From NCBI GenBank assembly GCA_021852055.1, contig JAJZOD010000003.1, positions 15,884-79,883 on the forward strand: a stretch of DNA of 64,000 bases. The letters are read 5' to 3'. The translations under genes were made by a program, and so were the position numbers. The notes under the pieces were generated by a model. That model was not told the origin of the DNA, did no database searches, and saw only the letters and a list, made by a program, of their open reading frames with translations. Positions 2,539 to 64,000 of the stretch are shown in pieces; within the stretch, counting starts at the first letter, position 1; every line of letters starts with the position of its first letter. The DNA comes from Candidatus Micrarchaeota archaeon. Its GTDB lineage: Archaea > Micrarchaeota > Micrarchaeia > Micrarchaeales > CABMGC01.

Positions 2539-2552
2539 GATTAGGCGATCCT

Positions 2553-46540: not shown

Positions 46541-46595
46541 AAACGTTGTATTTTTTATTTAATCACTATATACGCTAATCCAAAACCAAATCCAT

Positions 46596-47726: not shown

Positions 47727-47731
47727 TCTGA

Positions 47732-48928
47732 TCAGCTTTTAAATTGCTCCCTTTTCAAGTCTTTCAATACGTGAAGATACCTGCCCTTGTATTTTTCATA
47801 TGCGAAATTGTTTGAGTGCTTCCACGCATTCCTGCTGAAACTACTGTAATTCCTCATTATGCGCTCCGATAGTTCAGGTATCTCATCTGCGCTGTCAAAA
47901 AGGAATCCGTTATAGCCATCTTTTACAAGATCATCCATTGCAGTGCCCCTTCTCGCAAGGATCGGAATTGAATGAGCTTCAGCTTCTACGAGAGGCATAT
48001 TAAAGCCCTCATGATAGCTATTGCATACATATATATCAGAATCTTCAAAGAAGTTTTCTATTGCTACTTGTTTGGGCAGTATTCTGATGTTGTCATTTGC
48101 ATATTTCCGCGCACTCATATACTCTTTTCTGAACTCCTTCATCATTTTGTTTTCACCGAAATGCGTCAAGCCTATACCCGCTTCATTGCATATCTTCGCA
48201 AGTTCCGGCACCGCCTTGTTCTTTGCATATCTTCCATACGCGAGAAGCTGTGGTTTCTGCCTGTTTTGCATCTTACCGGTGGCGACATCTGAAGCAGAAC
48301 TGTAATTGTATGTATGTACACCGCGGCTCCTAATATATGGTTTGTATGTTCTATATGGTAAATTATATGTATGGAAAAGCGGCAGCACCCTGATTGCACC
48401 AGGGTCGAAGCCTTGTTTTATTAAATCGCTTTTTGTGAACTCCGATATTGTTATTATTCTTGGGTCAAGGCTTTTAATTGTCTGCATCATCGAGTAACTA
48501 TAAAACGCATGATTTGTGTCGTGCGAAAGGAAAGGATAAGTGATGCCATAAAAAAAGAATATGTCATTCCTGTGGAAATGTTCAAAAAGAGGGTAAAATG
48601 CTCCCAAATGCCATACCCTTATATTTGCTTTTTCTATGGCGTTGTATGCGGCCTTTGGTTTATATCTAACTTTTGAAGGCAGCGCCATCCTGAACCACTC
48701 CGATTTCTTGCTATGTATAAACTCTCTAAACGGGTCAAGCGTTTTAGTTTCAAAATAGTCTTTTATAGCATATGGCAGTACGAAATCAAAAGAACTGTAA
48801 TGTTCTGCTATCAACGTTGAGTCCCAACCCTGCTCCTTGTGTATTCTGTTGTTGGTGCGCACTACATTGCTCAGCGACTCTCCCTCTATTATCACTGTAG
48901 ATATGTCTGCTATTTTCATTTTCATCAC
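47732..48928 (-). CDS. Glycosyltransferase family 4 (GT-B), tandem paralogue
   Basis: YHEGFNMPLVEAEAHSIPILA. Carries a 21-codon insertion relative to the paralogue, between the two identical tracts. Confidence 0.85.
   Translation of the reverse strand: MMKMKIADISTVIIEGESLSNVVRTNNRIHKEQGWDSTLIAEHYSSFDFVLPYAIKDYFETKTLDPFREFIHSKKSEWFRMALPSKVRYKPKAAYNAIEKANIRVWHLGAFYPLFEHFHRNDIFFFYGITYPFLSHDTNHAFYSYSMMQTIKSLDPRIITISEFTKSDLIKQGFDPGAIRVLPLFHTYNLPYRTYKPYIRSRGVHTYNYSSASDVATGKMQNRQKPQLLAYGRYAKNKAVPELAKICNEAGIGLTHFGENKMMKEFRKEYMSARKYANDNIRILPKQVAIENFFEDSDIYVCNSYHEGFNMPLVEAEAHSIPILARRGTAMDDLVKDGYNGFLFDSADEIPELSERIMRNYSSFSRNAWKHSNNFAYEKYKGRYLHVLKDLKREQFKS
47994..48256. repeat. 263-bp tract identical to 46855..47117
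   Basis: See the partner entry. Confidence 0.9.
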
Positions 48929-49635
48929 TCTTTCAGCACGCTACTTTGTTGCATGGTTTTGGCAGGATTCTTCTGCTTGTCATCTGCGCTTGACAATATG
49001 CTATTTACAACCCTCCTCTGTTCTACTGCAATTTTCCTCTGGTCCTGAACTATTCGTATCTGATCCCTTATGAATGACTGGAAGTTTTTAAGTGTATGAA
49101 TCTGCTCCTCTAACACAACCAACTTCTTTGCTAGCCTGTTTTTAGTTGCCTTGCTTATCTTTAGCTCCATAATTGCCTTCATGTTAAGCATCTCTATCTC
49201 TATATTTTGTACGCGCATCTCATACTCCTGCAGCCGCATCTCAAGGTTTTGTGCCTGAATGCCATAATTCTGTATCTGCACATCATAACTTTGTACGCGC
49301 ATCTCATAGTTTGCTATCTCCTTGAAGCCTATTGGCTTGTTTATATAAGGATTTGTTTCGGCATTTATGGCATGCTCTTCTCCGAAGATTCTCAGTTTCT
49401 TCATTGTGTAACCCAAAATACCGCTTAGGAACATCAGCCCAAGCAGTATTGCCACTGTCACAGTAAGTGTATCCGGGATGAATTTTACCAGAACCAGTTC
49501 GTAAATTATTGTTACGTATGCTATCGCGCCGAGCCACCATGCAATGTAGCTGCCCCAGCCAAGTCTTGTATAGAAGAATATCCTGGCAAACAACACGCGG
49601 TCAAGTTTTACCATCTTATCATTATAGATTATCAT
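48925..49635 (-). CDS. Membrane protein (2 TM) with a repetitive C-terminal coiled-coil; first gene of the GT operon
   Basis: TM segments WGSYIAWWLGAIAYVTIIY and VTVAILLGLMFLSGILGY. Repetitive MRVQSYDVQIQNYGIQAQNLEMRLQEYEMRVQNIEIEML. Its stop overlaps the GT4 start (ATGA). Confidence 0.55.
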   Translation of the reverse strand: MIIYNDKMVKLDRVLFARIFFYTRLGWGSYIAWWLGAIAYVTIIYELVLVKFIPDTLTVTVAILLGLMFLSGILGYTMKKLRIFGEEHAINAETNPYINKPIGFKEIANYEMRVQSYDVQIQNYGIQAQNLEMRLQEYEMRVQNIEIEMLNMKAIMELKISKATKNRLAKKLVVLEEQIHTLKNFQSFIRDQIRIVQDQRKIAVEQRRVVNSILSSADDKQKNPAKTMQQSSVLKE

Positions 49636-49754
49636 TTATAGAAATAGTATGCCTGTGCACCTATCTCTGTATATATTTATCCGTATTTGTCATGAACATT
49701 TATATTAATTTCCGAATGATTCAATGTTTGTATGTTATATGCACGGTGTTTTAT

Positions 49755-52136
49755 ATGGCTGTTGAAGCCGTCACTGAGTCAGCGAAACGCCGCATATCAG
49801 GCAAAAGTACAATGCTGCTCATGCTCGCTATTGTTCTTGTCTTGGCATCTGCAATATACCTACGTGTTTTGCTAATACAATATCCCGGATTCTTTGAACC
49901 TGATGGTTTCTACAATTATGCAGTAGTTAATTATGCTGTTGCACATGGGTTTTCTGTACCTAAATACCTAAGCATCTCCGGACAGTCTGCAGGCGTGCCT
50001 GTCAATGAACCCTCCGGGCTTTACTGGGTTGCATTGCTTCCATACGCAGTTCTTCAGCATCTTGGGATAAGCGTCTATTCGATAATGCGCTTTATTTCGG
50101 TGCTGTTCGGCCTGTTTGATATAATTGGCGCATACTACTTATCAAGATTCATAAGCAAGGATCGCGTCTTCGGATTGCTTGTAATAGCGCTTGTCGGGCT
50201 TAGTGCAGCTAATGCTTCAAAGACAATGGCGCTTGAATACAGGGGCGACGGCTTTGTTACTATTTTCCTCATTTTTGCACTTATATCTATAGGGATGGTA
50301 ATCAACGAGAAGCGCCGTAGCAGGAAGGTTCTATACGCGCTCCTTGGTGCAGTGTCGCTAAGCATATGCAATCTTGTATGGAATGGCGCCTCTTTTGCTG
50401 TTGCAGTATACGCCATTTCAATCGTACTCCTTGCATCATATGCATTCATAGCTGCTAACAAAGAGCTGCTCAGAAACATGCTTTATATCCTGTCTGGCCT
50501 CTTTATCTGGTTCATGCTTGCCATGTTGTTCTCTGCATTAGGATACATACACGGGCAGCAGTATCAGGCGTTTGTTGGCCCTGATTTCATAGCACTGCCA
50601 TTTGCGCTTCTTGCAGGATGGTTTGTGCTGTGGCTTATACTAGAAAAAAAAATAATGCGCAGCGCAGTAACTACTACAAAAGGCAGACTGAAAGTTCTTG
50701 GAATGATATTCCTCATCGGCACAGTTATTTTCTACCTGTCTGCATACGGATTCCTGTACCAGACACTTATTGCTGAAGGTCTTTTCTCTTCGCGCGTAAA
50801 TCTATTGTCATCAATACAGGAACTTGCAACGCCAAATCTCGGCTTCCTCTTTGCAAATTTCAACATAACTCTTCTTATGAGCCCTATGGGGCTAATGATG
50901 GTGTTTTCATCAATTCTGCCTGCAGCTATGTTTGTGTTCTTCGCTGCACTGGTTGCAAGTTCATTCTTGTATGTACTCATACGCGTATCCGGCTCTGGCG
51001 GATGGCTCAATGGCAGCTTCAACTTCACCAAAAACATCCGGCCTGAGATGCTTATACTTATAGCATACCTCGCAGTTACTGCGTACCTGCAGATGCTTGC
51101 TGAAAGGTTTGCTTCGCTTGTTTCAGTACCCACTGCTATATTTTCTGCGGTCACATTGTATCTTATAATCCTGTTTGTGAAAAGTCGTACCCCTATCAAA
51201 TATAAAATTAGGGCATACTTCACAACAGCTGTAATTATCATTGCGTTTTTTGCAGTAATACTGCATTATGATTTGCTGTTAGCTCCTGCATCCCCAACGG
51301 ATTCTACGGTACCATACCTGCTTAATGCCTCTTCCTGGCTGGAAACTAATACTCCACAGAACAGCGTGGTGCTTACACTATGGCCTGATGGTTCTGTAGT
51401 GGAAGGGTGGGCCAATCGTACAAGCGTAACTGACAGCGTCGGGTCCCAGAATCCATCAAAAATCACAGCCTTTGCATCATGGCTTCTTAATAGGAGCAGT
51501 GACCCAAATTTTCTCACGAGCAGTTCAGCGGGACATCCTAATTACCTGCTCGTAAGAAGTTCGTGGCTTGAAGAAACCAATGGCATCTTCATAGAATCCG
51601 GAATGAACCAAAATCTTTCAGGATACTACGGTGTCAAGGGCTTTGCGTTCACCAATGAGTCCACAGGTCCTACAGGAACTAGCATAAGATTATCAGGCAT
51701 TGATTCAGAAATATATCTGCATGTGCAGAATAACAGTGCCGCTGGCATAATGGTATACAATACCTCTTTGGAAAAACAGATTGTGCCAATTGAATACATT
51801 GAAATGTACAACATTAAAAATGGAAACTTCTCTGTTCAGGAGAATTATACCGGTGGAAGCGGCCTCTCCTCTCTGCTTATTGTGATGTACTCTGATACAA
51901 ACAGTGCAAAACACAACATGCCTCTAAATATAACAGGCGCAGTTCTTGCAGCGCCATACCTCGCAGGCAGCAACCTCATCAAACTGCTATACCTATGCAA
52001 CTACAATGCATGCGTGTGGAACTCCAACAACACTTCAGTAAAGCTTGTGCAGGTGTATCCGAACAGCACAACGGGATTCAATCCAAACACAAAGATATTC
52101 AGGATTGAATATATCAATGCTACCGGGACCAGATAG
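49755..52136 (+). CDS. aglB: STT3/AglB-family oligosaccharyltransferase homologue with a degenerate WWDYG motif
   Basis: More than 12 TM segments. FFEPDGFYNY aligns to the STT3 EFDPYFNY loop. VVLTLWPDGSVVEGWANRTSVTDSVGSQN aligns to yeast [27 protein letters not shown]. The start is set at ATG 49755 because upstream codons overlap the divergent gene. TATA-like TTTATATTAA lies at 49699..49708. Confidence 0.7.
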   Translation: MAVEAVTESAKRRISGKSTMLLMLAIVLVLASAIYLRVLLIQYPGFFEPDGFYNYAVVNYAVAHGFSVPKYLSISGQSAGVPVNEPSGLYWVALLPYAVLQHLGISVYSIMRFISVLFGLFDIIGAYYLSRFISKDRVFGLLVIALVGLSAANASKTMALEYRGDGFVTIFLIFALISIGMVINEKRRSRKVLYALLGAVSLSICNLVWNGASFAVAVYAISIVLLASYAFIAANKELLRNMLYILSGLFIWFMLAMLFSALGYIHGQQYQAFVGPDFIALPFALLAGWFVLWLILEKKIMRSAVTTTKGRLKVLGMIFLIGTVIFYLSAYGFLYQTLIAEGLFSSRVNLLSSIQELATPNLGFLFANFNITLLMSPMGLMMVFSSILPAAMFVFFAALVASSFLYVLIRVSGSGGWLNGSFNFTKNIRPEMLILIAYLAVTAYLQMLAERFASLVSVPTAIFSAVTLYLIILFVKSRTPIKYKIRAYFTTAVIIIAFFAVILHYDLLLAPASPTDSTVPYLLNASSWLETNTPQNSVVLTLWPDGSVVEGWANRTSVTDSVGSQNPSKITAFASWLLNRSSDPNFLTSSSAGHPNYLLVRSSWLEETNGIFIESGMNQNLSGYYGVKGFAFTNESTGPTGTSIRLSGIDSEIYLHVQNNSAAGIMVYNTSLEKQIVPIEYIEMYNIKNGNFSVQENYTGGSGLSSLLIVMYSDTNSAKHNMPLNITGAVLAAPYLAGSNLIKLLYLCNYNACVWNSNNTSVKLVQVYPNSTTGFNPNTKIFRIEYINATGTR

Positions 52137-52582
52137 CACTGGAGCTAAGTCGCATGTACTAAATATCATTAGTGGTAATTAGTGGTAATAATAAATAAAA
52201 GAATCAAAACTTAACTGCAGGCACCTCTTCATACCAATAAATCTAAATGTCTTCTCTGACAAAAAGACAGTAGTGGTTAAACGCAAAAATCAAAAGCAGG
52301 AATGCGGTTAACGGCATCTCGTAAGAATGGCGGATTCATGCTTATGCATACATCTGCAGTCAGTCACATAAACGGTTCAGACGAACCGGATGCAGCGCTT
52401 AGAACTCCACAAACAATTCTGTTAAATAGAAATTATTGCAACGCACGCATGCGTATGCATTATACGAGTGAGAATGGCTTTGGTTTCGCCGGCATAATCA
52501 GCATTATGGTATACGTAGCCAGCAGAACGATGAAACCTTCAATGCCGTATGCACTGGTGCAGAGATAAAATCAGGGAGCTCA

Positions 52583-54115
52583 ATGGCTACAGGCGACACA
52601 CAGGATCAGTCACAAAGAGACAGCAGTACGGGAAGCAAAGAAGCAAAGGATTTCTATACAGATGCCGGCAAGGCATTCGAACAGAATGACTTTGAGAAGG
52701 CAATAATTCTTTATACAAAAGCCATAAATGCGGATCCCAACTACTCCAGTGCATATTTCAACCGGGCACTGTCCTATGCTATTGTGAACAAATACCTAGA
52801 GGCTACGCGGGATGCAGAGAAGGTGCTTGATCTTGAGCCGAACAGCCACGATGCACCCTATGTAATGGGCATAATATCAGAATATCAGCATGACTATAAA
52901 GGCGCAAAGGAGTGGTACGAAAAGGCACTGTCAAGGAATCCGAACTATGAGCAGGCAAAAGCACGGCTTGAGCAGTTGAAATCCAAGCTTGCACAGGAGG
53001 GCACATCACCTGCTTCAGAGGCTTCGGCTGCTCCTGCTATGGGTCCGGTATCAACAAAACCAGTTGCTGAAAGCAAGGACACTGTTGTGGAAGAAGGCCA
53101 GATCAAAAAAGTCAAGTGGCACGTCTCAAACATAAAGTTCAAGGACGTAGTGGGCATGACAAAGGAGAAGAAGCTCATCTACGAGAATATAATACTAGCC
53201 ATACGCAAGCCTGACTTGCTAAAGGCGTACGGCAAGAAGCTCGGGCTTGGCGTAATATTCTACGGCCCTCCGGGCTGCGGGAAAACCTACTTTGTCAATG
53301 CGATAGGCGGCGAAACAGGCTCAAAGGTAATGATAGCAAGGATTAACGAGATAGTGGATATGTATGCCGGCAACACAGAAAAGAACATGCATGCAATATT
53401 CGAGCAGGCAAGGAAGAATACCCCTGTAGTTGTATTCTTCGATGAGATTGATGCCCTTGGGCAGAAGCGTGGCGGAGAAGGCGGCGGAGGCGAGCAGGGC
53501 TCATACATGCGCATGGCCGTTAACCAGTTCCTTCAGGAGATGGATGGTGTAGAGAAGAATCCAGAGGGCATATTCGTAATAGGCGCAACAAACCAGCCAT
53601 GGGACATAGACCCTGCGCTTAAGCGCAGCAAACGTTTCGGCGAATCCATTTACATACCGCCTCCAGATTACAAGACAAGGAAGCAGGCTCTCATATACAA
53701 CACAAGGAAGATGCCCCTTGGCAGGATAAATTTCGGAAGGCTAGCGCGCGCAACGATGGGTTTCTCGCAAGCCGATCTCGAGGAGATTTGCGACAAGGCT
53801 GCTCTAATCCCTGCTGCTGAGGAGGACAGAACAGGCAGGAGGAGAAAGATAACAATGCGCGATTTTCTTAAGATGATAAAGGCGCACGGCAACACCCTGG
53901 ACGAGTGGTATTCTATGGTAAAGAAGGACATAATAAGCAAGACAGAGACCCAGATTGTCGATGGAAAGAAACAGACTACAGTAAAGGAAGGCAAGCTCAG
54001 TCCAGAAGAGAAAAGCAGGTACAAGGCGATGATAAAGGACGTTAAGAGGAACAGCAACTCATTCTACAGGTTTGTGAAGAGGTTCGTAAGAAGCTTCTCC
54101 CTCAGAATAACTTGA
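52583..54115 (+). CDS. TPR-repeat N-terminal domain fused to a single AAA+ ATPase domain (Vps4/meiotic-clade-like)
   Basis: Three TPR-like repeats (AIILYTKAINADPNYSSAYFNRALSY...). Walker A GPPGCGKTY, Walker B VVFFDEIDAL, and GATNQPWDIDPALKRSKRFGESIYIPPP. Confidence 0.8.
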   Translation: MATGDTQDQSQRDSSTGSKEAKDFYTDAGKAFEQNDFEKAIILYTKAINADPNYSSAYFNRALSYAIVNKYLEATRDAEKVLDLEPNSHDAPYVMGIISEYQHDYKGAKEWYEKALSRNPNYEQAKARLEQLKSKLAQEGTSPASEASAAPAMGPVSTKPVAESKDTVVEEGQIKKVKWHVSNIKFKDVVGMTKEKKLIYENIILAIRKPDLLKAYGKKLGLGVIFYGPPGCGKTYFVNAIGGETGSKVMIARINEIVDMYAGNTEKNMHAIFEQARKNTPVVVFFDEIDALGQKRGGEGGGGEQGSYMRMAVNQFLQEMDGVEKNPEGIFVIGATNQPWDIDPALKRSKRFGESIYIPPPDYKTRKQALIYNTRKMPLGRINFGRLARATMGFSQADLEEICDKAALIPAAEEDRTGRRRKITMRDFLKMIKAHGNTLDEWYSMVKKDIISKTETQIVDGKKQTTVKEGKLSPEEKSRYKAMIKDVKRNSNSFYRFVKRFVRSFSLRIT

Positions 54116-54256: not shown

Positions 54257-56302
54257 TTGTACGGAAACATAAAAAGCTCATGTACTATTTCTGCATTTGC
54301 CTTACTGCTACTGTTTTATGCGGTTGCGCATCCTGTATATGCGGGCAACTCTGTATCAGCAAATGTCAATGTAATATGCCCTTTTGATGTAGTTCTTGGT
54401 GTAGCGCCGGCCTACATCAAGTACACAAACATCACCATGAACTACAGCGTCGAGGCGCTTGGCAGCTGCTCTGTAGGTAGCCTAAACGGGAACATCAGCA
54501 TAGTATCGGGCAATGGCACACATATCCTGTACAAAAGAGACGTAAACATCAGCAATATTGACAGGAGTTTCAATGGCATAATTGTAATAAACAGCAATTC
54601 AATTGCAGCAAATGCGTCAGGCGCTCGCCTCTTTCTGCAGGGTCTAAACACCTACAACTTCAGCAGCAAGAGCTTTACACTAATACAACCTGCAGACATC
54701 ATCATAACGAATTTCACTTTATCATCTGGTTCGGTTAATCCGGGATCACAGATGATCCTTTATGCAACATTATACAACAAAGGCGAACTTGCATCAAACC
54801 AAATACTGCTCAACATGTTTGTAACAGGTCCATATCCGTTCAATACAAGCTACATCGAGCCAGGCCTGCCTCCTAGTGAAAGTGAGGTAGTAACAATAAC
54901 ACTTCCAATCAATGCTACACTGCAATCGGGCACGTATGCCGTATCATTATATGCGCATTTCAATACAACAGGGTATAATTTTATAAAAGGCGTATCAAAT
55001 ACCAGCACTTCTACATATACTGTTTCCCAGCCTGCGCAGCCTCATCCATCCTCGGTTCCTAATAAAAAATCAATAACATCGCTGCCGCAGCTGTCAGTGG
55101 TCAGCGCACCGTTGTTGATATCCACCCAAGAAGGAGCTGCGTCAGTGTCCCAGATGGACTTCCTTAACAGCGGCAGCGCCCCAGAAACAATAAACATCTC
55201 AACTACAAAGGAGTTCCAGAATGTCTTGCTTATCTCATCTAAAAACGTATACATAGAGCCCAAAAGTTCATTGTTGGTAGATTTCAAGTTCGTTCCAAAT
55301 TCAACAATGATCCCAGGAACATATGTCATACCAATTAACATAACAGCAAGGGTGCAGAACGGAACTGCAGAGACGGAACAGGAGTTCATAAACTTCGAAG
55401 TGTATAACAGTTCCACAGTCAGGCCCACTATAACAACTCAGGTAACCTTGTCAAATAACACCAACTACGCTTCAGGTACTATATACATATCTGCGCCTTC
55501 AAATTCCCCTATATACAATATGACAATGGCAACAAAGCTTCCATTATTCGTAGCAGGCAACATATCGCAGATATATGCATACGGCATGCCGAACAACATA
55601 ACACAGTCAAATGGATACTACAACATAAACTGGTTTATAAGCTACATACCTGCGGGCCAGAGCGCATACGCCTACTATACAATAAAGAACATATCAAGCC
55701 AGTCATACCTGCAAAATGTCCAGAACATCCTTACAGCCCAGTACCCCCAAAAACCGCAGCAGAGCAATCTGCGTATTATCAAGATAAAAGTGCCGTCATT
55801 TTATACAAACGAGACAGCCAATATAACTGTTGCCTCCCTTTACACAGGAACGCAGGCCCAGAAAGCCTACTTTTCACTGGAAAATTACGGGTCCTTGTCA
55901 GTACAGAATCCCGTAAGGGTTGTCAACATGTCTCCTAATGAGCTTGCATATACGAGCTTCAGCATAACAACAAACTCAAGCACAGGAACCTTCCTGTTCA
56001 GCCTACTCATATCTGGGAACAATATAAACTATTCATACTCCCTGCCTGTTGTTGTTGAGGAGAATCCTATAAAGAGCAATATACCCGCGCTCGAGACTAT
56101 TCCTCCGGTATACCCCCAAAACCAGATAGATCTCCAAGCTGCCGAACCTTATGCTCTTGCAGCAATATTCTTATTATTGACTATTGGAATTATATTTGTA
56201 ATATTGAACAAACGAAATAAGTCCCATTACAGCAGGGACAGGAGCAATGAGCTGAGAAGGCTTAAAGATCAGATATCTAGGGACTATGATGATACCGAAT
56301 AA
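54257..56302 (+). CDS. Secreted multi-beta-sandwich protein (CARDB/NEW3-like) with a C-terminal TM anchor and charged tail
   Basis: TTG start. Signal peptide ...LLLLFYAVAHPVYA|GN. CARDB-like ADIIITNFTLSSGSVNPGSQMILYATLYNKGELAS...GTYAVSLYA. C-terminal TM ALAAIFLLLTIGIIFVIL is followed by NKRNKSHYSRDR. Confidence 0.7.
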   Translation: MYGNIKSSCTISAFALLLLFYAVAHPVYAGNSVSANVNVICPFDVVLGVAPAYIKYTNITMNYSVEALGSCSVGSLNGNISIVSGNGTHILYKRDVNISNIDRSFNGIIVINSNSIAANASGARLFLQGLNTYNFSSKSFTLIQPADIIITNFTLSSGSVNPGSQMILYATLYNKGELASNQILLNMFVTGPYPFNTSYIEPGLPPSESEVVTITLPINATLQSGTYAVSLYAHFNTTGYNFIKGVSNTSTSTYTVSQPAQPHPSSVPNKKSITSLPQLSVVSAPLLISTQEGAASVSQMDFLNSGSAPETINISTTKEFQNVLLISSKNVYIEPKSSLLVDFKFVPNSTMIPGTYVIPINITARVQNGTAETEQEFINFEVYNSSTVRPTITTQVTLSNNTNYASGTIYISAPSNSPIYNMTMATKLPLFVAGNISQIYAYGMPNNITQSNGYYNINWFISYIPAGQSAYAYYTIKNISSQSYLQNVQNILTAQYPQKPQQSNLRIIKIKVPSFYTNETANITVASLYTGTQAQKAYFSLENYGSLSVQNPVRVVNMSPNELAYTSFSITTNSSTGTFLFSLLISGNNINYSYSLPVVVEENPIKSNIPALETIPPVYPQNQIDLQAAEPYALAAIFLLLTIGIIFVILNKRNKSHYSRDRSNELRRLKDQISRDYDDTE

Positions 56303-56328
56303 GAAACAAGAAGCCAGCAGATGAGTAA

Positions 56329-57117
56329 ATGCCAAAACCGTATGTTATAAAAATATCCTCGCAAAAAGGAGGCGTAGGAAAGACCACAATGGCGGTAAAC
56401 CTTTCAGCAGCGCTTCAGGAGATGGGCAGCAATGTGCTTCTTGTAGATTTTGACATCGCAAATCCAAGTGTAGGCTTTCATCTTGGAATAGAGGGACAGA
56501 ATCTCGGAGTCCAGAACATCCTGTTGAAAGGCGCTAAGCCCGAAGATGTGATTATACCGCACGCGCCTACAGGCCTGCACGTCATCCCAGGAAACATGAC
56601 ATATCCTTTAAAGGAGCCGAGTGCACAGAACATCAAGGTGTTTTTCACCAAGCTGAAGCGGTTAAACTATGATTATCTGATATTCGACACAGCTCCGGGT
56701 TTTTTTCTTCCAGAATTTTCAGCAGAGTGCAACGAAGCCATAATAATTGCCACGCCAGAGCTGAGCTCCTGCGTAAGCAGCGTAAGGCTTTCAAACATAT
56801 ACAAAAAACACGGACTCAAATCGCAGCTCCTGATAAATCGGATAAGAAACAAGCGTTATGAGCTGCATCCTGCAGAAATAGAGGAGACTTTCGGGTCAAA
56901 GGCCCTTGGCCTGATACCAGAAGACGAAACAGTGCCAAAGAGCATAGCCATGCACGTGCCTGCTTATATACTAAACAGAAAAAGCATTTTTTCAAGGGCT
57001 GTGCACGACACGGCGCACTTCTTCCCTTCAAACGGGTATAATAGCGAAAGAGATCTGATCAAGCGGGGAGGCATACTCTCTTTTATAAAAAGGCTCTTCA
57101 GGATAAAATCCTATTGA
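56329..57117 (+). CDS. MinD/ParA-family P-loop ATPase
   Basis: Deviant Walker A SSQKGGVGKTTMAVNLS and Walker B-like YLIFDTAPG. 262 aa. 26 nt after the previous gene and 1 nt before the next. Confidence 0.88.
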   Translation: MPKPYVIKISSQKGGVGKTTMAVNLSAALQEMGSNVLLVDFDIANPSVGFHLGIEGQNLGVQNILLKGAKPEDVIIPHAPTGLHVIPGNMTYPLKEPSAQNIKVFFTKLKRLNYDYLIFDTAPGFFLPEFSAECNEAIIIATPELSSCVSSVRLSNIYKKHGLKSQLLINRIRNKRYELHPAEIEETFGSKALGLIPEDETVPKSIAMHVPAYILNRKSIFSRAVHDTAHFFPSNGYNSERDLIKRGGILSFIKRLFRIKSY

Positions 57118-57118
57118 C

Positions 57119-60100
57119 ATGCCTTTTTATCTGTTAGTGTATAATATAATCTCTATTGATCCTATGCTGCGTTTCAGGAGCATGATGCTGTTTTATATTA
57201 TATCGTTAGCTTTTGTTTTGTTTTCACAACTCATCACATCAGTTTACGCGAATCCTATGCTAAGCGCAAACCAGACATCATCCAATACCATAATACAGCA
57301 GGCTGTTACGCAAAATTCGGTACAGGAAAGCTGCAAAACCTGCAATGTTCTGGTATTTTCAGAAAACGGGCTCCCACAGGGCCTAGAATGGGAAGTTTTA
57401 TCCATAAACGGCAACACTCTGGCAAACGCTATAACTCCAAACACGATAGTCGTGAATTACTCATTTTTAAATAACGTTTCAAATACTATTACCATACCTG
57501 ATGTAATCTCAGCAAATATGACTTATGCGCCATCCCCAAATACAATGCTGTTGAGCTCAAACCAGTTCAATGGCACCGCAGTTCTTAACATTTCATTCAG
57601 CAGTTACGTAAACACCTCATTTTCAGAAGAGGGCCTGCCAACCGGAACTTTGTGGTCCATTTCCTATGGCAATAAAACAGAGTCATTTATCGGAAACACC
57701 ATAATCTTCAGGTCTATGGCAGGAAATTATCCTGTGTCAATACCTGACATCACTTCAGGCAGCAGGCTGTATGCTGCACAAAGCCCTGCATACGTTATTT
57801 CAGGAGAAACAGTTGCATTAAATTTTTCAGGCAACTATATAATAGCGCAACCCCCTACAGAGAACACAACAGTAAATGAATCAGCCGCAAATATCTCAAC
57901 AGGCATGCAGAAGCTCAATAGCACGCATGCAAACACAAGCATTCAAGGCAAGCTGTCCAAGGCGCTAAACGAATCATTTAAAAAATACGGGCTTGGCAAT
58001 GGCGTGCTAATCATGCAGTGGCAGGGATCGAACAGTAATCTTAATGGCACTGCAGTGAAAAACAGCAATTATCACAGCAGTGCAATATCCAAATACAACC
58101 AAACCAACCAAACAAGCCAGTCTTTGTACAATGGCAGTATAACCTCAACTACAAATCAAGCAATACAGCTTAACTATACTACAATGGACAATCTGACTTC
58201 GTTGAACATAACCAAGGCAAATGCATTCCGCACATACATTAATTCAAGTTATCCTTCCCTTCTGCAGCTGCAGCATAACATTACAGTGGGTTATGGCAGC
58301 ATAAGGCAATCAGGCAAAGTCGTGGCTGCTGGCAGGCGCCTAGAGTTCATTACGTATAACGAAAATTCAACTTTAGTCTATTACAATATCTCAGTTGTAA
58401 AGGCCTCCCCGAATATGTCTATATCTGTTGATGGTGTATCATTTAACAAAAGAAACTCAACTGGTAAAATTTATGTTCCAGTTATAAATAATCAAAAAAA
58501 TTATAATTTATCTATATCATTAAAAAGTGCCCTTGGTAACAATAATTACGCAGAGTTTTCATATTCTATAAAATTTAACAATGGAACAACAATTACTAGA
58601 AGTGGCAATTATAATTCGGTAAATAAAAACTTTCTTTATAAATTACCCTATACAACTAATACTATTATTACTTTTGATACGTATGGAAATCAAAATTACA
58701 GTGCAATTGATCCTACAATAATCGTAATACCTGTAAATATTTTGTACTATGTTCCGATAACATTAACTAATTCACAAAATATAGCAACAACTGCACCATT
58801 TCAACAAATGATTTCGGTTAATAGTCGTTTATATAAAAATTACGAAGCTGGAAATTTAGATAATATAAATTTCTTTTATGCTAACGGCACTATAATCTCG
58901 TCATGGATGGAAGGTAGTAACGTAATAAGTTTGGATACTCCTGGAGACAATTTGTTAAATACCTCAATAAATACTATATATTGGATTTATCTGACTAATG
59001 GCATACCTGCTGTATCATCAAAAACCATATATATGGGCTTTTCATCTATTAATACAAATTTTTTTAATTCCATATCTGAAGGAGAAGCACCAGAGTTATC
59101 ATCAACATATGCAAAATATGATAATGGCGCAAATATTTTTGGTGTATATGTAAATGCTAATACTCCTCTCTCTGATTTTACTGGGGTAAATATAGGCAAT
59201 TTTTCAACTACGACGCTAAACGGAGAACCTGTATTATTATTTTATGCATCGGCACATAAAGTTGGGTGGGTAGGATTACCAAATCCATACACTAATTTTA
59301 TTATGGATGGATTTTCATATATCGCACAGACTGGAAGCGCTGTAGGTTATTTTGCAGAGGCGCAGGCTGGTACTTCAGCTGGATATTTATTAGGAGCAGG
59401 AAATGGTCAAGGGCATACAGAACTTTCTATAAGTTCTATCGATTCAAAAGGCGGTACGACTTTACTAAATTCTACGGGCACAGAGAATATTAATGTGTGG
59501 CAATATACGCAGACAAATTATTCTAATGGATATATATCTATGCTTGGTGGCAGTGCTCCAGACAATTTTTCATTAACAACATTTGCTACAGACACTAGTT
59601 ATACAAGTGGTTATATTGGATTTGGAGAATCAGGTGATCAACATCCTAATTATTATCGTTATATCTTCGTTAGGAGTTTGCCTCCAAATAATATTATGCC
59701 ATCTGTGACATTTGGAAGTTTGTTGGGCGTTGCAAGTTTTTCTGAAAGTGGATTACCTCTTTCCGGTGAATTATGGAATGTCACTTATAATGGCATAACT
59801 GAAAATACTATAGTGCCTAATTCAATAATATTTTCGAATATACCTGGCAAATATTTTTTCAGTATTCCTAATCAAATTGTTAGTGGCTCAACATATTCTT
59901 CAAATATTATTAATGGTTATATGGTTACAGGAAATTCAACTGCAATTACTTTTTCACAATCATTAACTTCAACATGTACTATATATTTAAATAGTAATGT
60001 AATAAATTTTGGAAATTTAAATCCAAATTCAGATATACCCACATCAAACAGCATAACAGACACGAATTCGGGAAATACAAATGCGTACCTGTATCTTTAC

Positions 60101-60331
60101 GGAGGAAATTGGGTGCAGGGATCGGAATCTTTTGGAGTCAGCAACACCATCTACGCAGATGCTTCTGGCGTTGCATACTCTGCTGCGAGCAAGCTCACTT
60201 CAACTGCAACAAATTCAATGATACAGATAGCAGCAAGTTCTAGCAACACCATATACTTTGGCTTAAATATACCTCCAGCAACCCCCTCAAGTGCATACGG
60301 CCAGACAATAACAATAGAGAACGTATGCTGA
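57119..60331 (+). CDS. Giant (about 1055-1070 aa) secreted adhesin-like protein: sequon-rich beta domains, DUF2341 plus a concanavalin/LamG-like module, and a C-terminal ~120-aa module paralogous to the 60450..60953 protein
   Basis: Probable start ATG 57164 (MLRFRSMMLFYIISLAFVLFSQLITSVYA|NP). DUF2341-like YVPITLTNSQNIATTAPFQQMISVNS...INFFYANG...IYWIYL...TIYMGF. The C-terminus reads ...IQIAASSSNTIYFGLNIPPATPSSAYGQTITIENVC. Confidence 0.8.
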   Translation: MPFYLLVYNIISIDPMLRFRSMMLFYIISLAFVLFSQLITSVYANPMLSANQTSSNTIIQQAVTQNSVQESCKTCNVLVFSENGLPQGLEWEVLSINGNTLANAITPNTIVVNYSFLNNVSNTITIPDVISANMTYAPSPNTMLLSSNQFNGTAVLNISFSSYVNTSFSEEGLPTGTLWSISYGNKTESFIGNTIIFRSMAGNYPVSIPDITSGSRLYAAQSPAYVISGETVALNFSGNYIIAQPPTENTTVNESAANISTGMQKLNSTHANTSIQGKLSKALNESFKKYGLGNGVLIMQWQGSNSNLNGTAVKNSNYHSSAISKYNQTNQTSQSLYNGSITSTTNQAIQLNYTTMDNLTSLNITKANAFRTYINSSYPSLLQLQHNITVGYGSIRQSGKVVAAGRRLEFITYNENSTLVYYNISVVKASPNMSISVDGVSFNKRNSTGKIYVPVINNQKNYNLSISLKSALGNNNYAEFSYSIKFNNGTTITRSGNYNSVNKNFLYKLPYTTNTIITFDTYGNQNYSAIDPTIIVIPVNILYYVPITLTNSQNIATTAPFQQMISVNSRLYKNYEAGNLDNINFFYANGTIISSWMEGSNVISLDTPGDNLLNTSINTIYWIYLTNGIPAVSSKTIYMGFSSINTNFFNSISEGEAPELSSTYAKYDNGANIFGVYVNANTPLSDFTGVNIGNFSTTTLNGEPVLLFYASAHKVGWVGLPNPYTNFIMDGFSYIAQTGSAVGYFAEAQAGTSAGYLLGAGNGQGHTELSISSIDSKGGTTLLNSTGTENINVWQYTQTNYSNGYISMLGGSAPDNFSLTTFATDTSYTSGYIGFGESGDQHPNYYRYIFVRSLPPNNIMPSVTFGSLLGVASFSESGLPLSGELWNVTYNGITENTIVPNSIIFSNIPGKYFFSIPNQIVSGSTYSSNIINGYMVTGNSTAITFSQSLTSTCTIYLNSNVINFGNLNPNSDIPTSNSITDTNSGNTNAYLYLYGGNWVQGSESFGVSNTIYADASGVAYSAASKLTSTATNSMIQIAASSSNTIYFGLNIPPATPSSAYGQTITIENVC

Positions 60332-60449
60332 ATATGCTGAATGCATATTTGCTGTATTCCTTATGTCTGTTGCATTTTGCCTTTACCTATGCTGTTTACC
60401 TGTGGCAAGCATTTATAGCCTTTTTTATTGCAATATAACTGGAGATTAT

Positions 60450-60953
60450 ATGTTCGGAAAGAAATTTTTTGGAGTGCTCGCCGGTTTGGTTGGCGTGATT
60501 TTGACGTTTGCGTTTATTTCTCTGCCTTTGGTTTATCCAAACGCTAATGTCAATGCAAATGTTATTGTGTCCCCGGCATGTTTCATAGGGGTTTCGCCGA
60601 GTTCAATAACTTTTGGAAATATGGCGCCTACGTCTGCGTATGATACAAACGTGCTTGTAACAGATACAGATAACGGCGGAAACGTCGCAGCTAACATACT
60701 GCTTGAAGGCATAGCTTGGGCATCAGGAAGCAATAATTTCGCAGTAGGTCAGACACAGTGGTCACCAACGGTCCAGACCTCCTACACTGGCACTGCACTT
60801 ACTACAAGTCTCGTTGATACCCTGATACAAATCCCTGCGCCTACATCAAGCTCGCCTTCAACCTCAAATGTAGTTTACTTTGGTTTGCAGGTGCCTGGCG
60901 GAACGCCTCCGGGAACATACACGCAGACTATAACATTCGAGAACTCATGCTGA
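60450..60953 (+). CDS. Small secreted beta-rich protein (167 aa), candidate fibre/pilin-like subunit
   Basis: GGAG lies 6 nt upstream of ATG 60450. Signal peptide MFGKKFFGVLAGLVGVILTFAFISLPLV. The mature part aligns along its length with the C-terminal module of the 57119 gene and ends ...VYFGLQVPGGTPPGTYTQTITFENSC. Confidence 0.75.
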   Translation: MFGKKFFGVLAGLVGVILTFAFISLPLVYPNANVNANVIVSPACFIGVSPSSITFGNMAPTSAYDTNVLVTDTDNGGNVAANILLEGIAWASGSNNFAVGQTQWSPTVQTSYTGTALTTSLVDTLIQIPAPTSSSPSTSNVVYFGLQVPGGTPPGTYTQTITFENSC

Positions 60954-60960
60954 GGAACTG

Positions 60961-61551
60961 ATGAATTGCATGCATCCCAATTACGGCCGTTTTATCGGCC
61001 TACTTGTTATTTTTTCTTTTATTTTTTACAATGTAGCATATGCGCAGTTAGGCGAAGTGGCAGGCCCCCTTAACTTCAATGTAAGCGTAGGCAGCAGCGC
61101 CTCTCTGCAGTATACACTTATAAACGGAGGGTCGCAGCCTATACATTATCAGATAGTGCTTCCATCGCTTAATATAGTGCCAAATTCTACGGCGCCAACT
61201 TTTACAGTGTCGCAGATGAATGGCACAATATCACCACAATCACAGCTTGTCATAAATGTTACCGCTTATATGCCATCAAACGATAAACCTGGCATGCACT
61301 GGGGCGGCATACTGCAGGCAGTTGAAGTATCAAACATAACAATAAGCGGGAGTGGTGCGGTAATCCATCAAGGTGTGGCAAAGCTTGTAGGGGTAACTGC
61401 AGCGCAGCCGAAAGGCATACCTCTGCTGTATATAGTGCTGGCGATAGTCGTCTTAATAATAATTATTGTTCTGGTGTATTATTTCATGCGCCGCAGAAAA
61501 CATACTGGCCAGCATCCGAAGTCCAGGCGCAGGAAATCAAGAAAGCCATAA
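60961..61551 (+). CDS. Secreted single Ig-like/beta-sandwich protein with a C-terminal TM anchor and poly-basic tail
   Basis: Signal ...FIFYNVAYA|QL. LNFNVSVGSSASLQYTLINGGSQPIHYQIVLP. TM LLYIVLAIVVLIIIIVLVYYF is followed by MRRRKHTGQHPKSRRRKSRKP. 7 nt after the previous gene. Confidence 0.7.
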   Translation: MNCMHPNYGRFIGLLVIFSFIFYNVAYAQLGEVAGPLNFNVSVGSSASLQYTLINGGSQPIHYQIVLPSLNIVPNSTAPTFTVSQMNGTISPQSQLVINVTAYMPSNDKPGMHWGGILQAVEVSNITISGSGAVIHQGVAKLVGVTAAQPKGIPLLYIVLAIVVLIIIIVLVYYFMRRRKHTGQHPKSRRRKSRKP

Positions 61552-61601
61552 AGCACAATTTTCCAAAAGGCATCTAACGAGAGCAGCCCGCTTCACAAAC
61601 G

Positions 61602-61609
61602 TTTATATA
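61602..61609 (+). promoter_or_regulatory. TATA-box-like element upstream of the run-off giant ORF
   Basis: TTTATATA lies ~45 nt upstream of ATG 61654. A 7-bp inverted repeat TTGCTAT/ATAGCAA sits between the box and the ATG. Confidence 0.3.
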
Positions 61610-61653
61610 CGATACAGTCGTATTGCTATAATTACGAATAGCAAGATGTATCA

Positions 61654-64000
61654 ATGACTGGGAATTCATTTTTGAATGATAGTTTTTTATTGCTAGCTCG
61701 TTATACCACATTTTTCATGCTCCTGGTTTTTTCAATTTTTAGTATGTTTGGGGTAATGTATGCGCAAGGCGGCGCAAGGTATTCTGCAACAGGATTATCT
61801 GTAACTGTCACAAGTCCTACAACAGTAGTGCTTGGCAGTTCTACACCTATTAAACTGGATGCTCAAGTTCAAGGCGGAACTCCCGACTACACTTATTACT
61901 GGTATAATGCGCCTTCGTCTTCGGGCTGTGACAGCTCTAAGCTCTACGACTTCGTTCTTGAGGACACTGTTGGCCCAACCTCTTCTACTTCATCTTCGTA
62001 TGCTTTATCTCCACCAAGTTTTTGGAACCAAATGGGTTCCTATTATTTTTGCGTCAAAGTCGTTGATGCAAACGGCGATCAGGCAATGTCATCATACACT
62101 GTTTCAATCCAAGAACCAATAATAACTGTCCAAGTATCTCCACTTGTGAGCGGCATATCCAGCGGCAATTCCATCACACTTAGCTCGTCTGTGACAACTC
62201 GTGCCTCATTCACACCACCGCTCCAGTTAACATATAATTATGTTTGGATGTCTGGCACATCCTCAGTATGTAACCAAGAATCTACAGTTGCAGGGCGAAC
62301 CGCATCTATAACTGTGAGCCCGTCTTCTACTACATATTATTGTTTGACTGTGTTTATCAACGGCGGAGGCGGTGCCGGAACACAATCATCGGATGTAGCT
62401 CAAGTGATTGTTGGACAGCCAGGTTCAATGATTGCTACAATCTCAGTTCCCGAATCTGTTAATATCGGCAATCCGCTTACTCTAACTGCGACTGTATCTG
62501 GCGGCACACCACCATATTACTTTACATGGTATTCTGGAAGTTCACCGACAAACTGCAACACATATGTGGGCGAAACTAGCGATGTGGGGACATCTTCCGC
62601 CAATTATACTATAGATAATATGCAGACACCTAACTACTACTGTGTATCAGTGCTTGACAGCCAATCAAACTATGCGCAATCAGAAGCATATTATGCGCAG
62701 GTTCTTACCCCCGTAGCTTCTTCAGGTCCTTCCTGTTCTCTTAGCACGGGCCCATCTTCTGCAAGTACACCTGCTACGCAGGTACCTCCTGCATTGGCGC
62801 CACTCGCACAACAGACATTCAACTCCTCTTCTTCAAGTACGAATCTGGATACCATAGAACAGCAGATAATAACTGACCAGCAGGATATAGCTTCAAATTC
62901 GCTGAATGCATCATATTACAACAGCACGCTGCCGCAGTCGTGCACTGCAGTAAACATACCTCAACAGACTATTCCTGTGCAGATAGGCGGCACTACCCAA
63001 TATGTAACAATACCAGCAATAAGCGAGGAGTACTATCCGTCAAGCGCCATATCCAGCACCATAAGTGCTGCATTCCAGAGCGCAATGCAAACTGCAGTCG
63101 CATCCCTTATGTCTCAGCTTCAGGCGCAGATTCAATCGAGCATACAGAGTTCCTTATCTTCAAGCTTCGGTTCGAGCGCAGGCTCTCAGATTGCGTCATC
63201 GGTTTCATATGCTGTAGTTTCAGCACTCACTCCCAATCTAGAATCCCAAGTATATACGGCAATGCAGCCGGACATAGGCCAGACAATAACGCAGTCAGAA
63301 ATAAGTGGAATATCATCGAGTATCTACTCACAATTGGGTTCAACGCTTGCATCATCGATGGACTCTGCGGTTTCGCAGGCTCTTTCGCCTTATGAAAGCT
63401 CGATGTCTTCATCGGCGCTTGGATCGCTTTCAAGCGGCATAGTTGCAGGTATAATCCCGAGCATAGAATCAGGGATAAGCACTGCTGTGTACTCGGAGCT
63501 GAATCCGTATTCTGGCCAGCAGCTTACTCTGTCTGATGCATCATCGTTTTCAACTCAGATAGAGGAAAATGCTGTGGCATCAATATCCAATGCCGCAGGA
63601 AGCTACATACAGGGCAACATACAAAGCATAGTTCCAGGCTATGTCTCCGGCCAATCGGCATCATCTGCAATCTCCTCAGTAGTCACATCAGGGCTGGACT
63701 CTGCACTGCAGTCTGCGTTTTCAGGAACTTTCGGAAGCAGCCTTCAGAGCAGCGTAGGATCTAGCATATACGATGCCATGTACTCTGCGCTGCCGCAGAG
63801 CCTGCCTTCTGGACTTACGCAGGCACAGATATCGGGACTGTCATCTCAGATATCCAGCCAGGTTGCATCATCATTGTCGCAGAGCCTTGCACAGGAGCTC
63901 TCGCAGCAGCTCTCGCAGAATCTTGCACAGGGATTTTCACAGGCGTTCTCGCAGCAGCTCTCGCAGAATCTGGCGCAGTCCCTTGGAAGTTCCATCTCCT
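61654..64000 (+). CDS. Large secreted protein, 3' end beyond the window: signal peptide, three Ig-like repeats and a long Ser/Gln/Ala-rich low-complexity region
   Basis: Absent from the ORF track because it has no stop within the window. I translated frame 1 from ATG 61654 (preceded by an in-frame TAG at 61639) to base 64000 without a stop (782 codons). Signal ...FSMFGVMYA|QG. Repeats carry GGTP(D/P)Y.Y.WY ... YYC. Confidence 0.8.
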   Translation, partial: MTGNSFLNDSFLLLARYTTFFMLLVFSIFSMFGVMYAQGGARYSATGLSVTVTSPTTVVLGSSTPIKLDAQVQGGTPDYTYYWYNAPSSSGCDSSKLYDFVLEDTVGPTSSTSSSYALSPPSFWNQMGSYYFCVKVVDANGDQAMSSYTVSIQEPIITVQVSPLVSGISSGNSITLSSSVTTRASFTPPLQLTYNYVWMSGTSSVCNQESTVAGRTASITVSPSSTTYYCLTVFINGGGGAGTQSSDVAQVIVGQPGSMIATISVPESVNIGNPLTLTATVSGGTPPYYFTWYSGSSPTNCNTYVGETSDVGTSSANYTIDNMQTPNYYCVSVLDSQSNYAQSEAYYAQVLTPVASSGPSCSLSTGPSSASTPATQVPPALAPLAQQTFNSSSSSTNLDTIEQQIITDQQDIASNSLNASYYNSTLPQSCTAVNIPQQTIPVQIGGTTQYVTIPAISEEYYPSSAISSTISAAFQSAMQTAVASLMSQLQAQIQSSIQSSLSSSFGSSAGSQIASSVSYAVVSALTPNLESQVYTAMQPDIGQTITQSEISGISSSIYSQLGSTLASSMDSAVSQALSPYESSMSSSALGSLSSGIVAGIIPSIESGISTAVYSELNPYSGQQLTLSDASSFSTQIEENAVASISNAAGSYIQGNIQSIVPGYVSGQSASSAISSVVTSGLDSALQSAFSGTFGSSLQSSVGSSIYDAMYSALPQSLPSGLTQAQISGLSSQISSQVASSLSQSLAQELSQQLSQNLAQGFSQAFSQQLSQNLAQSLGSSIS

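Follow-up and report, generated by a model that had tools for sequence, protein, structure and literature searches.

The N-terminal part of a giant surface protein from an acidophilic Micrarchaeon, a probable long adhesion arm or tether

Introduction

Giant surface proteins are a known kind of protein among the DPANN archaea. The SPEARE proteins of Nanohaloarchaeota, for example, are reportedly giant secreted DPANN surface proteins that carry protease and endonuclease domains. In Mia14 ('Ca. Mancarchaeum acidiphilum'), about 2.5% of the genome is devoted to four huge surface proteins, for which a part in cell-cell interaction has been proposed (PMC5498576). Here, we describe a gene of this kind from a Candidatus Micrarchaeota archaeon, where an open reading frame (ORF) begins at position 61654 of a 64,000-nucleotide stretch of contig JAJZOD010000003.1 (assembly GCA_021852055.1, positions 15,884 to 79,883 of the forward strand; hereafter the window) and runs off its end. 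With moderate confidence, we take this frame to encode the N-terminal portion of a giant protein that is exposed on the surface of an acidophilic Micrarchaeon and would serve as a long adhesion arm or tether. Like the Mia14 and SPEARE giants, the protein belongs to a host-dependent nano-archaeon with a small genome, has a signal sequence and is several thousand residues long, and the three also share Ig/PKD-like adhesion-type repeats, low conservation outside the lineage and a proposed role in cell-cell contact. Compared by description only, it differs from the Mia14 proteins, which have PKD, Kelch/YVTN beta-propeller and CARDB fusions, and from both groups in having a core of about 1,900 residues without a known domain and an N-terminal arm made of tetrad repeats.

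Individual parts of the protein recall other systems. Its N-terminal repeats have the GGTPxYxYxW and YYC signatures of the multi-repeat, adhesin-like Ig_3/SprB proteins, but there are three copies here, their Pfam scores fall just below the cut-offs, and they cap a far larger unrelated protein instead of forming its bulk. As in tetrabrachion (11/3) and the YadA stalk (up to 19/5 = 3.8), a long and regular extracellular repeat, here predicted to be helical, leads from a head to an anchored base; unlike those, it has a period of 4.0, keeps Pro and Gly in register, is 30-45% Ser and has almost no charged residues. SlaB of the Sulfolobales has a C-terminal transmembrane (TM) anchor plus an elongated region. 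The Micrarchaeota surface-layer (S-layer) protein, SLP_Mh (Micr_00292), is a separate 101-kDa PF05123 protein (10.1101/2021.04.28.441871). With SlaB and SLP_Mh, our protein shares the context of an archaeal envelope glycoprotein and an N-terminal signal, whereas it lacks PF05123, is by our estimate some ten-fold larger than SlaB, and comes from a family with paralogues and variable enzyme inserts.

Results

A sequence-only reading of the window had pointed to this frame (61654..64000, forward strand), which is missing from the ORF lists because run-off ORFs are never listed. The start codon is the ATG at 61654-61656, with an in-frame TAG four codons upstream at 61639-61641, and from there 782 sense codons reach the window end without a single stop. 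At the local base composition, a run of this length would arise by chance with a probability of about 3e-17, and we therefore consider the ORF genuine. A gap of 102 nucleotides separates the ATG from the end of the neighboring gene's stop codon at 61551. Within it, the TATA-like box that had been claimed for the gene is found on the forward strand as TTTATATA at 61602-61609, 45-52 nucleotides upstream of the ATG, and another, TATAATTA, is found on that strand at 61627-61634, 20-27 nucleotides upstream. Both were read from the sequence and are putative promoters.

Everything past the window end was read from contigs that are about 99.6% identical, mainly contig L003. Positions 60040-64000 (3,961 shared bases) are 99.6% identical to six such contigs (L001-L006), and the 196-residue protein encoded immediately upstream (60961-61551) occurs with identical sequence on 22 public contigs, among them GCA_027363735.1, GCA_027363715.1 and several ENA assemblies. 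L003 carries the complete gene, whose 3,255-residue product differs from that of the window at three residues over the 782 shared codons, while another strain form has 3,348 residues by the gene table. When 3,299 residues of this longer form were compared, it proved to have essentially one added Ig-like repeat of about 93 residues near residue 1813. This added copy, by which L001, L002 and L004 vary from L003, is an internal 'TGSGF' Ig-like repeat, and it accounts for the two lengths. The earlier reading had looked to the downstream sequence for the C-terminus and a possible anchor, and the near-identical contigs supply both the whole gene and a C-terminal TM anchor.

Since the gene is repetitive and leaves the window, and since many family members in metagenome-assembled genomes are truncated at contig ends, the frame could in principle be a pseudogene in decay or the product of misassembly within repetitive DNA. 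We give this explanation hardly any credence. Beyond the stop-free run itself, the frame is intact over 3,255 residues, or over 3,299 residues of the 3,348-residue form, on contigs assembled independently from several samples, and both frame and pattern are kept in homologues at 26-50% identity. Together, these findings indicate that the ORF, as proposed, encodes a genuine secreted or surface protein, and that the unlisted frame is the predicted first quarter (the 5' 24%, 782 codons) of a real gene of about 9.8-10 kb for a membrane-anchored surface protein of roughly 3,250-3,350 residues.

As read from L003, the architecture predicted for the full-length product is that of a giant, type-I-like protein at the surface of an acidophilic Micrarchaeon (DPANN, 'ARMAN'-type). 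An N-terminal hydrophobic segment (residues 1-38) is followed by three Ig-like repeats (44-352), a linker rich in Ser, Thr, Pro and Gln (353-424), a beta-type element (425-465) and a Ser/Gln-rich tetrad domain (466-1300, most regular to about residue 1110). Beyond these lie a conserved module A (about 1300-1750), three or four 'TGSGF' Ig-like repeats (about 1800-2100), a conserved module B with 23 Cys and 23 N-glycosylation sequons (about 2149-3190), a single TM helix (about 3203-3227) and a Lys/Arg-rich tail of about 30 residues that ends at residue 3255. The C-terminus (...IGLWELAYGDIQTLEVIGLISLVGAVIAAKLILESRSKTRRK...) has the QIGLxELSYG motif, the TM helix and the basic tail. Only two TM-like segments are present in the protein, one at each end. 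The window part had been described as a stalk, and a membrane-proximal one does not agree with this layout: apart from the N-terminal segment, the sole anchor is the TM helix at the C-terminus, some 2,400 residues away, so the window part is the part furthest in sequence from that anchor.

Charged residues make up about 7% of the ectodomain, compared to 5-10% in other predicted extracellular proteins of the window and 25-29% in cytoplasmic ones. We read a charge content this low as typical of, or at least consistent with, exposure to acid. When the C-terminal 1,956 residues were searched against Pfam as five consecutive segments, no meaningful match appeared at E<=1; the whole protein had no match in NCBIfam or PHROGs, and a family profile run against PDB sequences gave chance-level matches only (E>=0.13).

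The N-terminal hydrophobic segment (residues 1-38; 61654..61767, forward strand) was delimited by Kyte-Doolittle hydropathy over residues 10-38 and by a helix at residues 5-37 in the AlphaFold2 (AF2) model. It would be either a signal anchor that stays uncleaved or a signal peptide of the Sec type, in which case the cut might fall after VMYA. Next come the three repeats of about 100 residues that the sequence-only reading had described, all on the forward strand: R1 (residues 44-154; 61783..62115; Cys92/Cys133), R2 (155-256; 62116..62421; Cys206/Cys230) and R3 (257-352; 62422..62709; Cys301/Cys329). Comparing the repeats with one another by BLASTP confirmed their kinship, with E=1.5e-10 for R1 and R3, E=2e-5 for R2 and R3, and E=0.01 for R1 and R2. 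Each repeat has two Cys, as had been stated (SSGC/YYFC, SSVC/YYC and PTNC/YYC). The motif GGTP(D/P)Y-x-(Y/F)-x-WY had been ascribed to all three as well; R1 (GGTPDYTYYWY) and R3 (GGTPPYYFTWY) do have it, while in R2 it is degenerate (SFTPPLQLTYNYVW).

Against Pfam, R3 approached two domain families, reaching E=6e-6 and 27.1 bits for Ig_3 (PF13927; residues 266-330), below the gathering cut-off of 30, and E=0.01 and 15.9 bits for the SprB repeat (PF13573; residues 276-296), below the cut-off of 28. A junctional adhesion molecule in the PDB matches residues 182-357 (E=1.9e-5). In a library of 1.8 billion proteins, the Ig-like part has 317 homologues at E<=1e-3, mostly multi-repeat proteins. There were 94 matches at E<=1e-10, and the best-matching stretch lies within residues 23-479 for all of them except two family members (P0006 and P0007). 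Among the top matches that were scanned, six of seven score above the Pfam cut-off for SprB, and five of the seven also exceed that for Ig_3. These homologues, along with the PDB match, bear out the Ig-like nature suspected earlier and indicate that the N-terminal repeats are of the very widespread Ig_3/SprB domain type, as far as homology can assign them. Over residues 35-394, the AF2 model, which had an alignment of only eight sequences to draw on, has scattered strands with a predicted local distance difference test (pLDDT) score mostly below 50. None of the other family members examined has the three N-terminal Ig-like repeats.

Between the repeats and the tetrad domain lie two short elements on the forward strand. 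The linker (residues 353-424; 62710..62925) was recognized by its Ser/Thr/Pro/Gln-rich composition; its pLDDT is below 50 save for one short helix, and it holds three of the four N-glycosylation sequons in the window part. The conserved beta-type element (residues 425-465; 62926..63048), with the core IPQQTIPVQIGGTTQYVTIPAISEEYY, emerged from the alignment with P0005-P0008, L007 and L008, and AF2 predicts four strands there (residues 431-460, pLDDT about 70-80). This element precedes the tetrad domain in every homologue that possesses one. The Ser-dominated region had been thought to begin at about codon 440; its actual start is at about residue 466-470, since residues 425-465 form the beta-type element.

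The tetrad domain, of which the window holds the first 315 or so residues (63049..64000, forward strand), is a repeat of the form [L/I/V/F/M]-[S/A/Q/G/P]-[S/Q]-[S/A/T/G]. It runs past the window end to about residue 1110 and more weakly to about residue 1300, for a total of about 830-880 residues. Position 1 is L, I, V, F or M in 96-98% of tetrads in the two most regular blocks, position 2 is S, A, Q or G with Pro tolerated, position 3 is S or Q in 80-88%, and position 4 is S, A, T or G. Fourier analysis of hydrophobicity gave a single sharp peak at 4.0 residues, with a power of 51 over residues 470-1300 and of 38 over the window part, while the maximum power over 200 shuffles was about 12. 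The amphipathic periodicity suggested by the sequence-only reading is thus real and far stronger than was claimed, and it is compatible with helices. In blocks of 40 residues, 9-10 of the 10 register positions are hydrophobic, and the register stays unbroken over 200 residues (671-870) and over 240 residues (871-1110), passing straight through Pro and Gly. We found no higher-order period in the domain: multiples of 4 are all equivalent, and neither Gly nor Pro has a significant period.

This pattern is conserved among relatives. The window part (residues 385-782) matches P0006 with E=5e-74, and the tetrad domain can be aligned in seven homologues across 880-925 residues with hardly a gap. At the register positions, identity is 42%, yet 89% of the homologue residues are hydrophobic, compared to 6% at the other positions. 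The period of 4.0 is common to P0005-P0008, L007 and L008, and a shorter form occurs in P0013 and P0023/L016. N-glycosylation sequons are absent from the tetrad domain, where 8.0 +/- 2.2 would be expected. The near-gapless alignment, the 89% hydrophobic register and the absence of sequons together argue for a folded domain of fixed length and indicate that this is not a drifting low-complexity sequence.

A different view would be that the Ser/Gln region is a disordered and probably O-glycosylated, mucin-like spacer, with its four-residue pattern a by-product of DNA repeat expansion. The composition lends itself to this view, as Ser accounts for 26-44% of each 100-residue block between residues 500 and 1100, and the only Pfam matches in the region look composition-driven. 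There is also DNA-level repetition: the direct repeat noted in the sequence-only reading is exact over 25 nucleotides (63899-63923 and 63947-63971, forward strand), encodes SQQLSQNL within the tetrad array and implies at least one recent duplication. Its two exact matches were not equaled in any of 100 shuffles, and their spacing of 48 nucleotides corresponds to four tetrads. In addition, AF2 confidence drops to 33-60 at residues 620-782. However, this is the only DNA repeat found, and disordered spacers normally drift in length and pattern, whereas here the length of the domain is conserved, the register holds for 200-240 residues at a time, and the seven homologues keep both alignment and hydrophobic register at 42% identity. 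We consider a disordered spacer distinctly unlikely and favor a folded tetrad domain.

As for the type of fold, AF2 places helices of 18-59 residues after the beta-type element, with a pLDDT of 60-80 at residues 480-620 and of 33-60 at residues 620-782. A Foldseek search of the PDB with the model of the window product returned nothing below E=0.5. By helix geometry, an amphipathic pattern that repeats every four residues corresponds to an angle of 90 degrees, which is near that of an alpha helix (100 degrees) and far from that of a beta strand (160-180 degrees). The region had been called silk-like and of low complexity. Instead, it is a length-conserved tetrad repeat, alignable almost without gaps and under pattern constraint, and it is not a Gly/Ala beta-silk. 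We also rejected fibroin-type beta-sheet silk (GAGAGS, period 2): the region has a Ser/Gln/Leu/Ala composition and a period of 4.0, it lacks a significant period-2 signal, and AF2 predicts helices.

More generally, the tetrad region might form a silk- or amyloid-like cross-beta structure or sheath, with Leu and Gln on one face and small residues on the other. Functional-amyloid sheaths are known from archaea, and the sequence formally fits a two-faced strand, in that odd positions alternate between hydrophobic residues and Gln/Ser while even positions are mostly Ser, Ala or Gly. On the other hand, AF2 predicts long helices and is at its most confident in the tetrad domain, the repeat angle lies close to alpha, and Leu, Gln and Ala favor helices. 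Moreover, we are dealing with a membrane-anchored protein and not with a free matrix subunit. A beta-solenoid was dismissed because no higher-order period is present to mark its turns. A beta-structured tetrad region is therefore very unlikely in our view.

Part of the tetrad domain, mostly beyond the window (residues 730-981), matches DUF445 (PF04286) in Pfam with E=5e-13 and 50.1 bits, above the cut-off of 33.8. The same family was matched in two homologues, and the window part has no DUF445 match in Pfam. Membership was rejected after direct comparison with a DUF445 protein, Escherichia coli YjiN, gave a phmmer score of about 0 and no similarity. YjiN resembles the tetrad domain in having a hydrophobic period near 4.0, though a weak one (power 7-8), and differs from it in its high charge and in not being rich in Ser and Gln. 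We read the DUF445 match as a likeness in helical pattern and composition.

The part of the protein that follows the tetrad domain places it in a family. The C-terminal part of the L003 protein has homologues at E=0 with 46-51% identity over 74-99% of the query, and against P0004-P0016 the protein gives E values from 0 to 9e-70. Homologues of its C-terminal 1,956 residues are giant proteins of 1,437-3,239 residues, one of them from 'Candidatus Micrarchaeia'. With one genome per species scanned, we found the core at 42 loci in about 38 genomes, which are labeled Micrarchaeota, Micrarchaeia or Micrarchaeaceae with the exception of one Marsarchaeota and two 'uncultured archaeon' genomes. Some genomes contain paralogues: one of them has the core at three loci, and a further two have it at two loci apiece. 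Modules A and B contain invariant motifs that include HHPLGIxDVNGYLYVLDDW and RLIYVxxDRFNNTIY, and nearly all of 40 loci examined have the pre-TM motif (QIGLxELSYG), the TM helix and the Lys/Arg-rich tail. Members are typically 1,400-2,300 residues long, within a family range of about 1,400-3,350. The L003 protein has modules A and B; as both lie beyond the window end, the assignment of the window's own gene rests on its near-identity to L003. On this evidence, the core defines an unannotated family that is almost confined to genomes labeled Micrarchaeota. A cluster look-up gave it no name beyond 'hypothetical protein', and our literature searches found no description of it.

Around the core, members vary. 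A long N-terminal extension made of the beta-type element and the tetrad domain marks a subclade that comprises the present organism, P0005-P0008, L007 and L008, and both parts are seen in the window. At the equivalent N-terminal position, P0015 has an ordinary heptad coiled coil with a period of 3.5. Among 22 members scanned, about half have a hydrolase-type domain inserted between modules A and B, namely SLT_3 (five), SLT (three), Peptidase_M23 (two), phage tail lysozyme (one) and NlpC/P60 (one); such inserts were found among P0009, P0013, P0015, P0016, P0017-P0019 and P0023-P0025. The present protein has no SLT, SLT_3, M23, NlpC/P60 or lysozyme domain, and the position is held by its three or four 'TGSGF' repeats. 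Inserts of the peptidoglycan-hydrolase type are odd for archaea whose known hosts lack murein, and they may point to bacterial targets or to glycan scavenging.

The loci of five relatives run from Lhr helicase through metallophosphoesterase, RNase H and TPR-AAA ATPase to the giant gene. The same order is found in the window, where it is broken by two blocks (45686-52568, which includes aglB, and 54257-61551). The second block was the 'fibre locus' that the giant gene had been said to follow, and it consists of five genes, for a 681-residue CARDB-like protein, a ParA/MinD ATPase, a 1,070-residue protein and two 196-residue proteins. The giant gene does adjoin this block in the window, but the link is not conserved: all five genes are absent from these loci in the five related genomes, in which the giant gene comes directly after the TPR-AAA gene. 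A functional link to the block was therefore rejected, and by comparison of these loci the 'fibre locus' is a lineage-specific insertion and no conserved partner. The STT3 oligosaccharyltransferase gene aglB lies at 49509-52136, 9.5 kb upstream of the giant gene, and in eight genomes (L026, L027, L028, L031, L033, L034, L039 and L046) it is directly upstream on the same strand. This adjacency and the 23 sequons in module B fit an N-glycosylated product. STT3/AglB, together with the gene content, also identifies the window as archaeal.

Several further observations concern other genes of the window. The protein with TPR and AAA ATPase domains (52583-54115, 510 residues), whose gene directly precedes the giant gene in five relatives, keeps 75-79% identity between genera. 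Its AAA part is similar to the FtsH, CDC48 and CdvC ATPases, with scores well short of the family cut-offs in every case. Within the five-gene block, a stretch of 1,593 bp (58447-60039) is swapped for an unrelated 2,887 bp in all six contigs that are otherwise about 99% identical. It lies inside ORF 57119-60331 and reaches the start of ORF 60363-60953, and the G+C content of 58001-60000 is unusually low at 0.33. As a result of the swap, the large secreted protein upstream has 1,070 residues in the window and 1,501 on the contigs, and the next small gene encodes 196 and 167 residues, respectively. Judging from the aligned contigs, the stretch is a strain-specific swapped cassette in a surface protein. 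The 1,070-residue protein and the first 196-residue protein share a C-terminal motif that ends on Cys (60250-60331, ...NTIYFGLNIPPATPSSAYGQTITIENVC; 60870-60953, ...NVVYFGLQVPGGTPPGTYTQTITFENSC). The motif has no match in Pfam or NCBIfam and is probably what the sequence-only reading had called the 'shared module'.

Elsewhere, positions 24992-31338 encode a 713-residue PQQ_2 beta-propeller protein followed by a 1,404-residue protein with three Laminin_G_3 (LamG/ConA-like) domains and DUF2341, both of which are probably secreted; LamG expansion has been reported for Mia14 and for DPANN in general (PMC5498576). Rfam also matched two tRNAs that were missed by ARAGORN. The one at 33145-33242 (reverse strand) is 98 nucleotides long and so probably contains an intron, and the one at 5525-5583 (forward strand) fits the full model into 59 nucleotides and is unusually short or degenerate.

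Discussion

The most economical reading of the giant gene, in our judgment, is that its product is a long adhesin or tether. Micrarchaeota attach to wall-less Thermoplasmatales hosts and depend on contact with them (PMC8975820; PMC5498576), and filaments have been seen at the sites of contact (PMC8975820). We propose that the C-terminal core would sit at the cell surface beside the membrane, N-glycosylated by AglB, and that the tetrad domain, as a defined, mostly alpha-helical and elongated domain of fixed length, would hold the Ig-like domains beyond the S-layer. There, these domains would bind a ligand on a wall-less Thermoplasmatales host or in the biofilm matrix, which would make the protein a long tether or adhesin. 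Members from other lineages would use this scaffold to present lysozyme-type, M23 or NlpC/P60 domains instead. The hydrolase inserts on a common scaffold suggest that the family serves in general to carry binding or lytic modules to the envelope of another cell, and the heptad coiled coil of P0015, which stands in the equivalent place, supports a rod or spacer role for the tetrad domain.

Alternatively, the protein could be an S-layer component, or a SlaB-like membrane anchor or stalk that holds SLP_Mh, with no contact to other cells. The published S-layer protein lacks an obvious anchor, and those who described it proposed that another protein with a TM segment might be the stalk (10.1101/2021.04.28.441871). 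A C-terminal TM anchor conserved across the family, the wide distribution of the family in Micrarchaeota and the adjoining aglB at eight loci would all suit this function. However, a structural part of the envelope sits poorly with up to three paralogues per genome, with lengths that range from about 1,400 to 3,350 residues, and with N-terminal extensions and inserts that both vary, some of the inserts being lysozyme-type or peptidase domains. We detected neither S_layer_N nor any other S-layer domain: for S_layer_N (PF05123), Pfam searches with the whole protein at E<=0.01 and with the C-terminal segments at E<=1 gave no match. At 3,255 residues, the protein is also far above SlaB-type stalks, by a size comparison from general knowledge. 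We regard an S-layer role as unlikely, and an adhesin or tether accounts better than any rival for the pattern of conservation, the paralogues and the variable inserts.

Several points weigh against an adhesin or tether nonetheless. The filaments seen by cryo-electron tomography were ascribed to the host by their authors (PMC8975820). If the N-terminal segment is uncleaved, the protein would be anchored in the membrane at both ends, and the geometry of a 'distal tip' would be wrong. The core of about 1,900 residues has no similarity in Pfam, NCBIfam, PHROGs or PDB sequences, and structure prediction is of limited help: the AF2 model of the 782-residue window product has a mean pLDDT of 47 with its eight-sequence alignment and is informative only at residues 430-620, and that of module B (a segment of P0004, with a 22-sequence alignment) is mostly beta with a mean pLDDT of 39 and too poor for use. 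Finally, a conventional continuous coiled coil, whether heptad, hendecad or pentadecad, had to be rejected for the tetrad domain. Periodicities of about 3.33-3.9 residues per turn are accessible to continuous coiled coils, with an upper limit of about 3.8-3.9, and the most extreme natural period is the 3.8 of YadA (PMC4786415). As 4.0 lies outside this range, the rod model needs short packed helices or an undescribed geometry.

The tetrad structure would accordingly be either an array of packed shorter helices or something undescribed. A bolder idea, which we offer tentatively and regard as rather doubtful, is that the domain, with about 160 consecutive units and Pro and Gly in register, represents a new class of extracellular fibrous fold, for instance a Ser-stabilized, strongly right-handed or otherwise non-canonical helical assembly beyond the coiled-coil range, that gives an Ig-tipped tether of about 100 nm for the capture of wall-less Thermoplasmatales hosts. 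The length is our estimate, taking 830 residues at 0.15 nm each as one unbroken helix.

As a giant DPANN surface protein, the protein is of a known kind, and its Ig-like repeats are ordinary. The family, its modular logic and the strictly 4.0-periodic tetrad domain appear to be undescribed so far, and the conserved tetrad domain with its period of 4.0 is the most unusual feature. Occurring naturally and conserved as a sequence of 640 residues or more, it has a hydrophobic period beyond the range that coiled-coil theory makes accessible, and its structure would interest protein-fiber specialists whichever way it is resolved. To our knowledge, host recognition and attachment by DPANN archaea remain largely unexplained, and we know of no Micrarchaeota adhesin that has been identified. 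The variable modules of this family, from Ig-like tips and rod-like extensions to lysozyme-type and peptidase inserts, are of the kind expected at a cell-cell interface, and its members are concrete adhesin candidates for the co-cultures that already exist.

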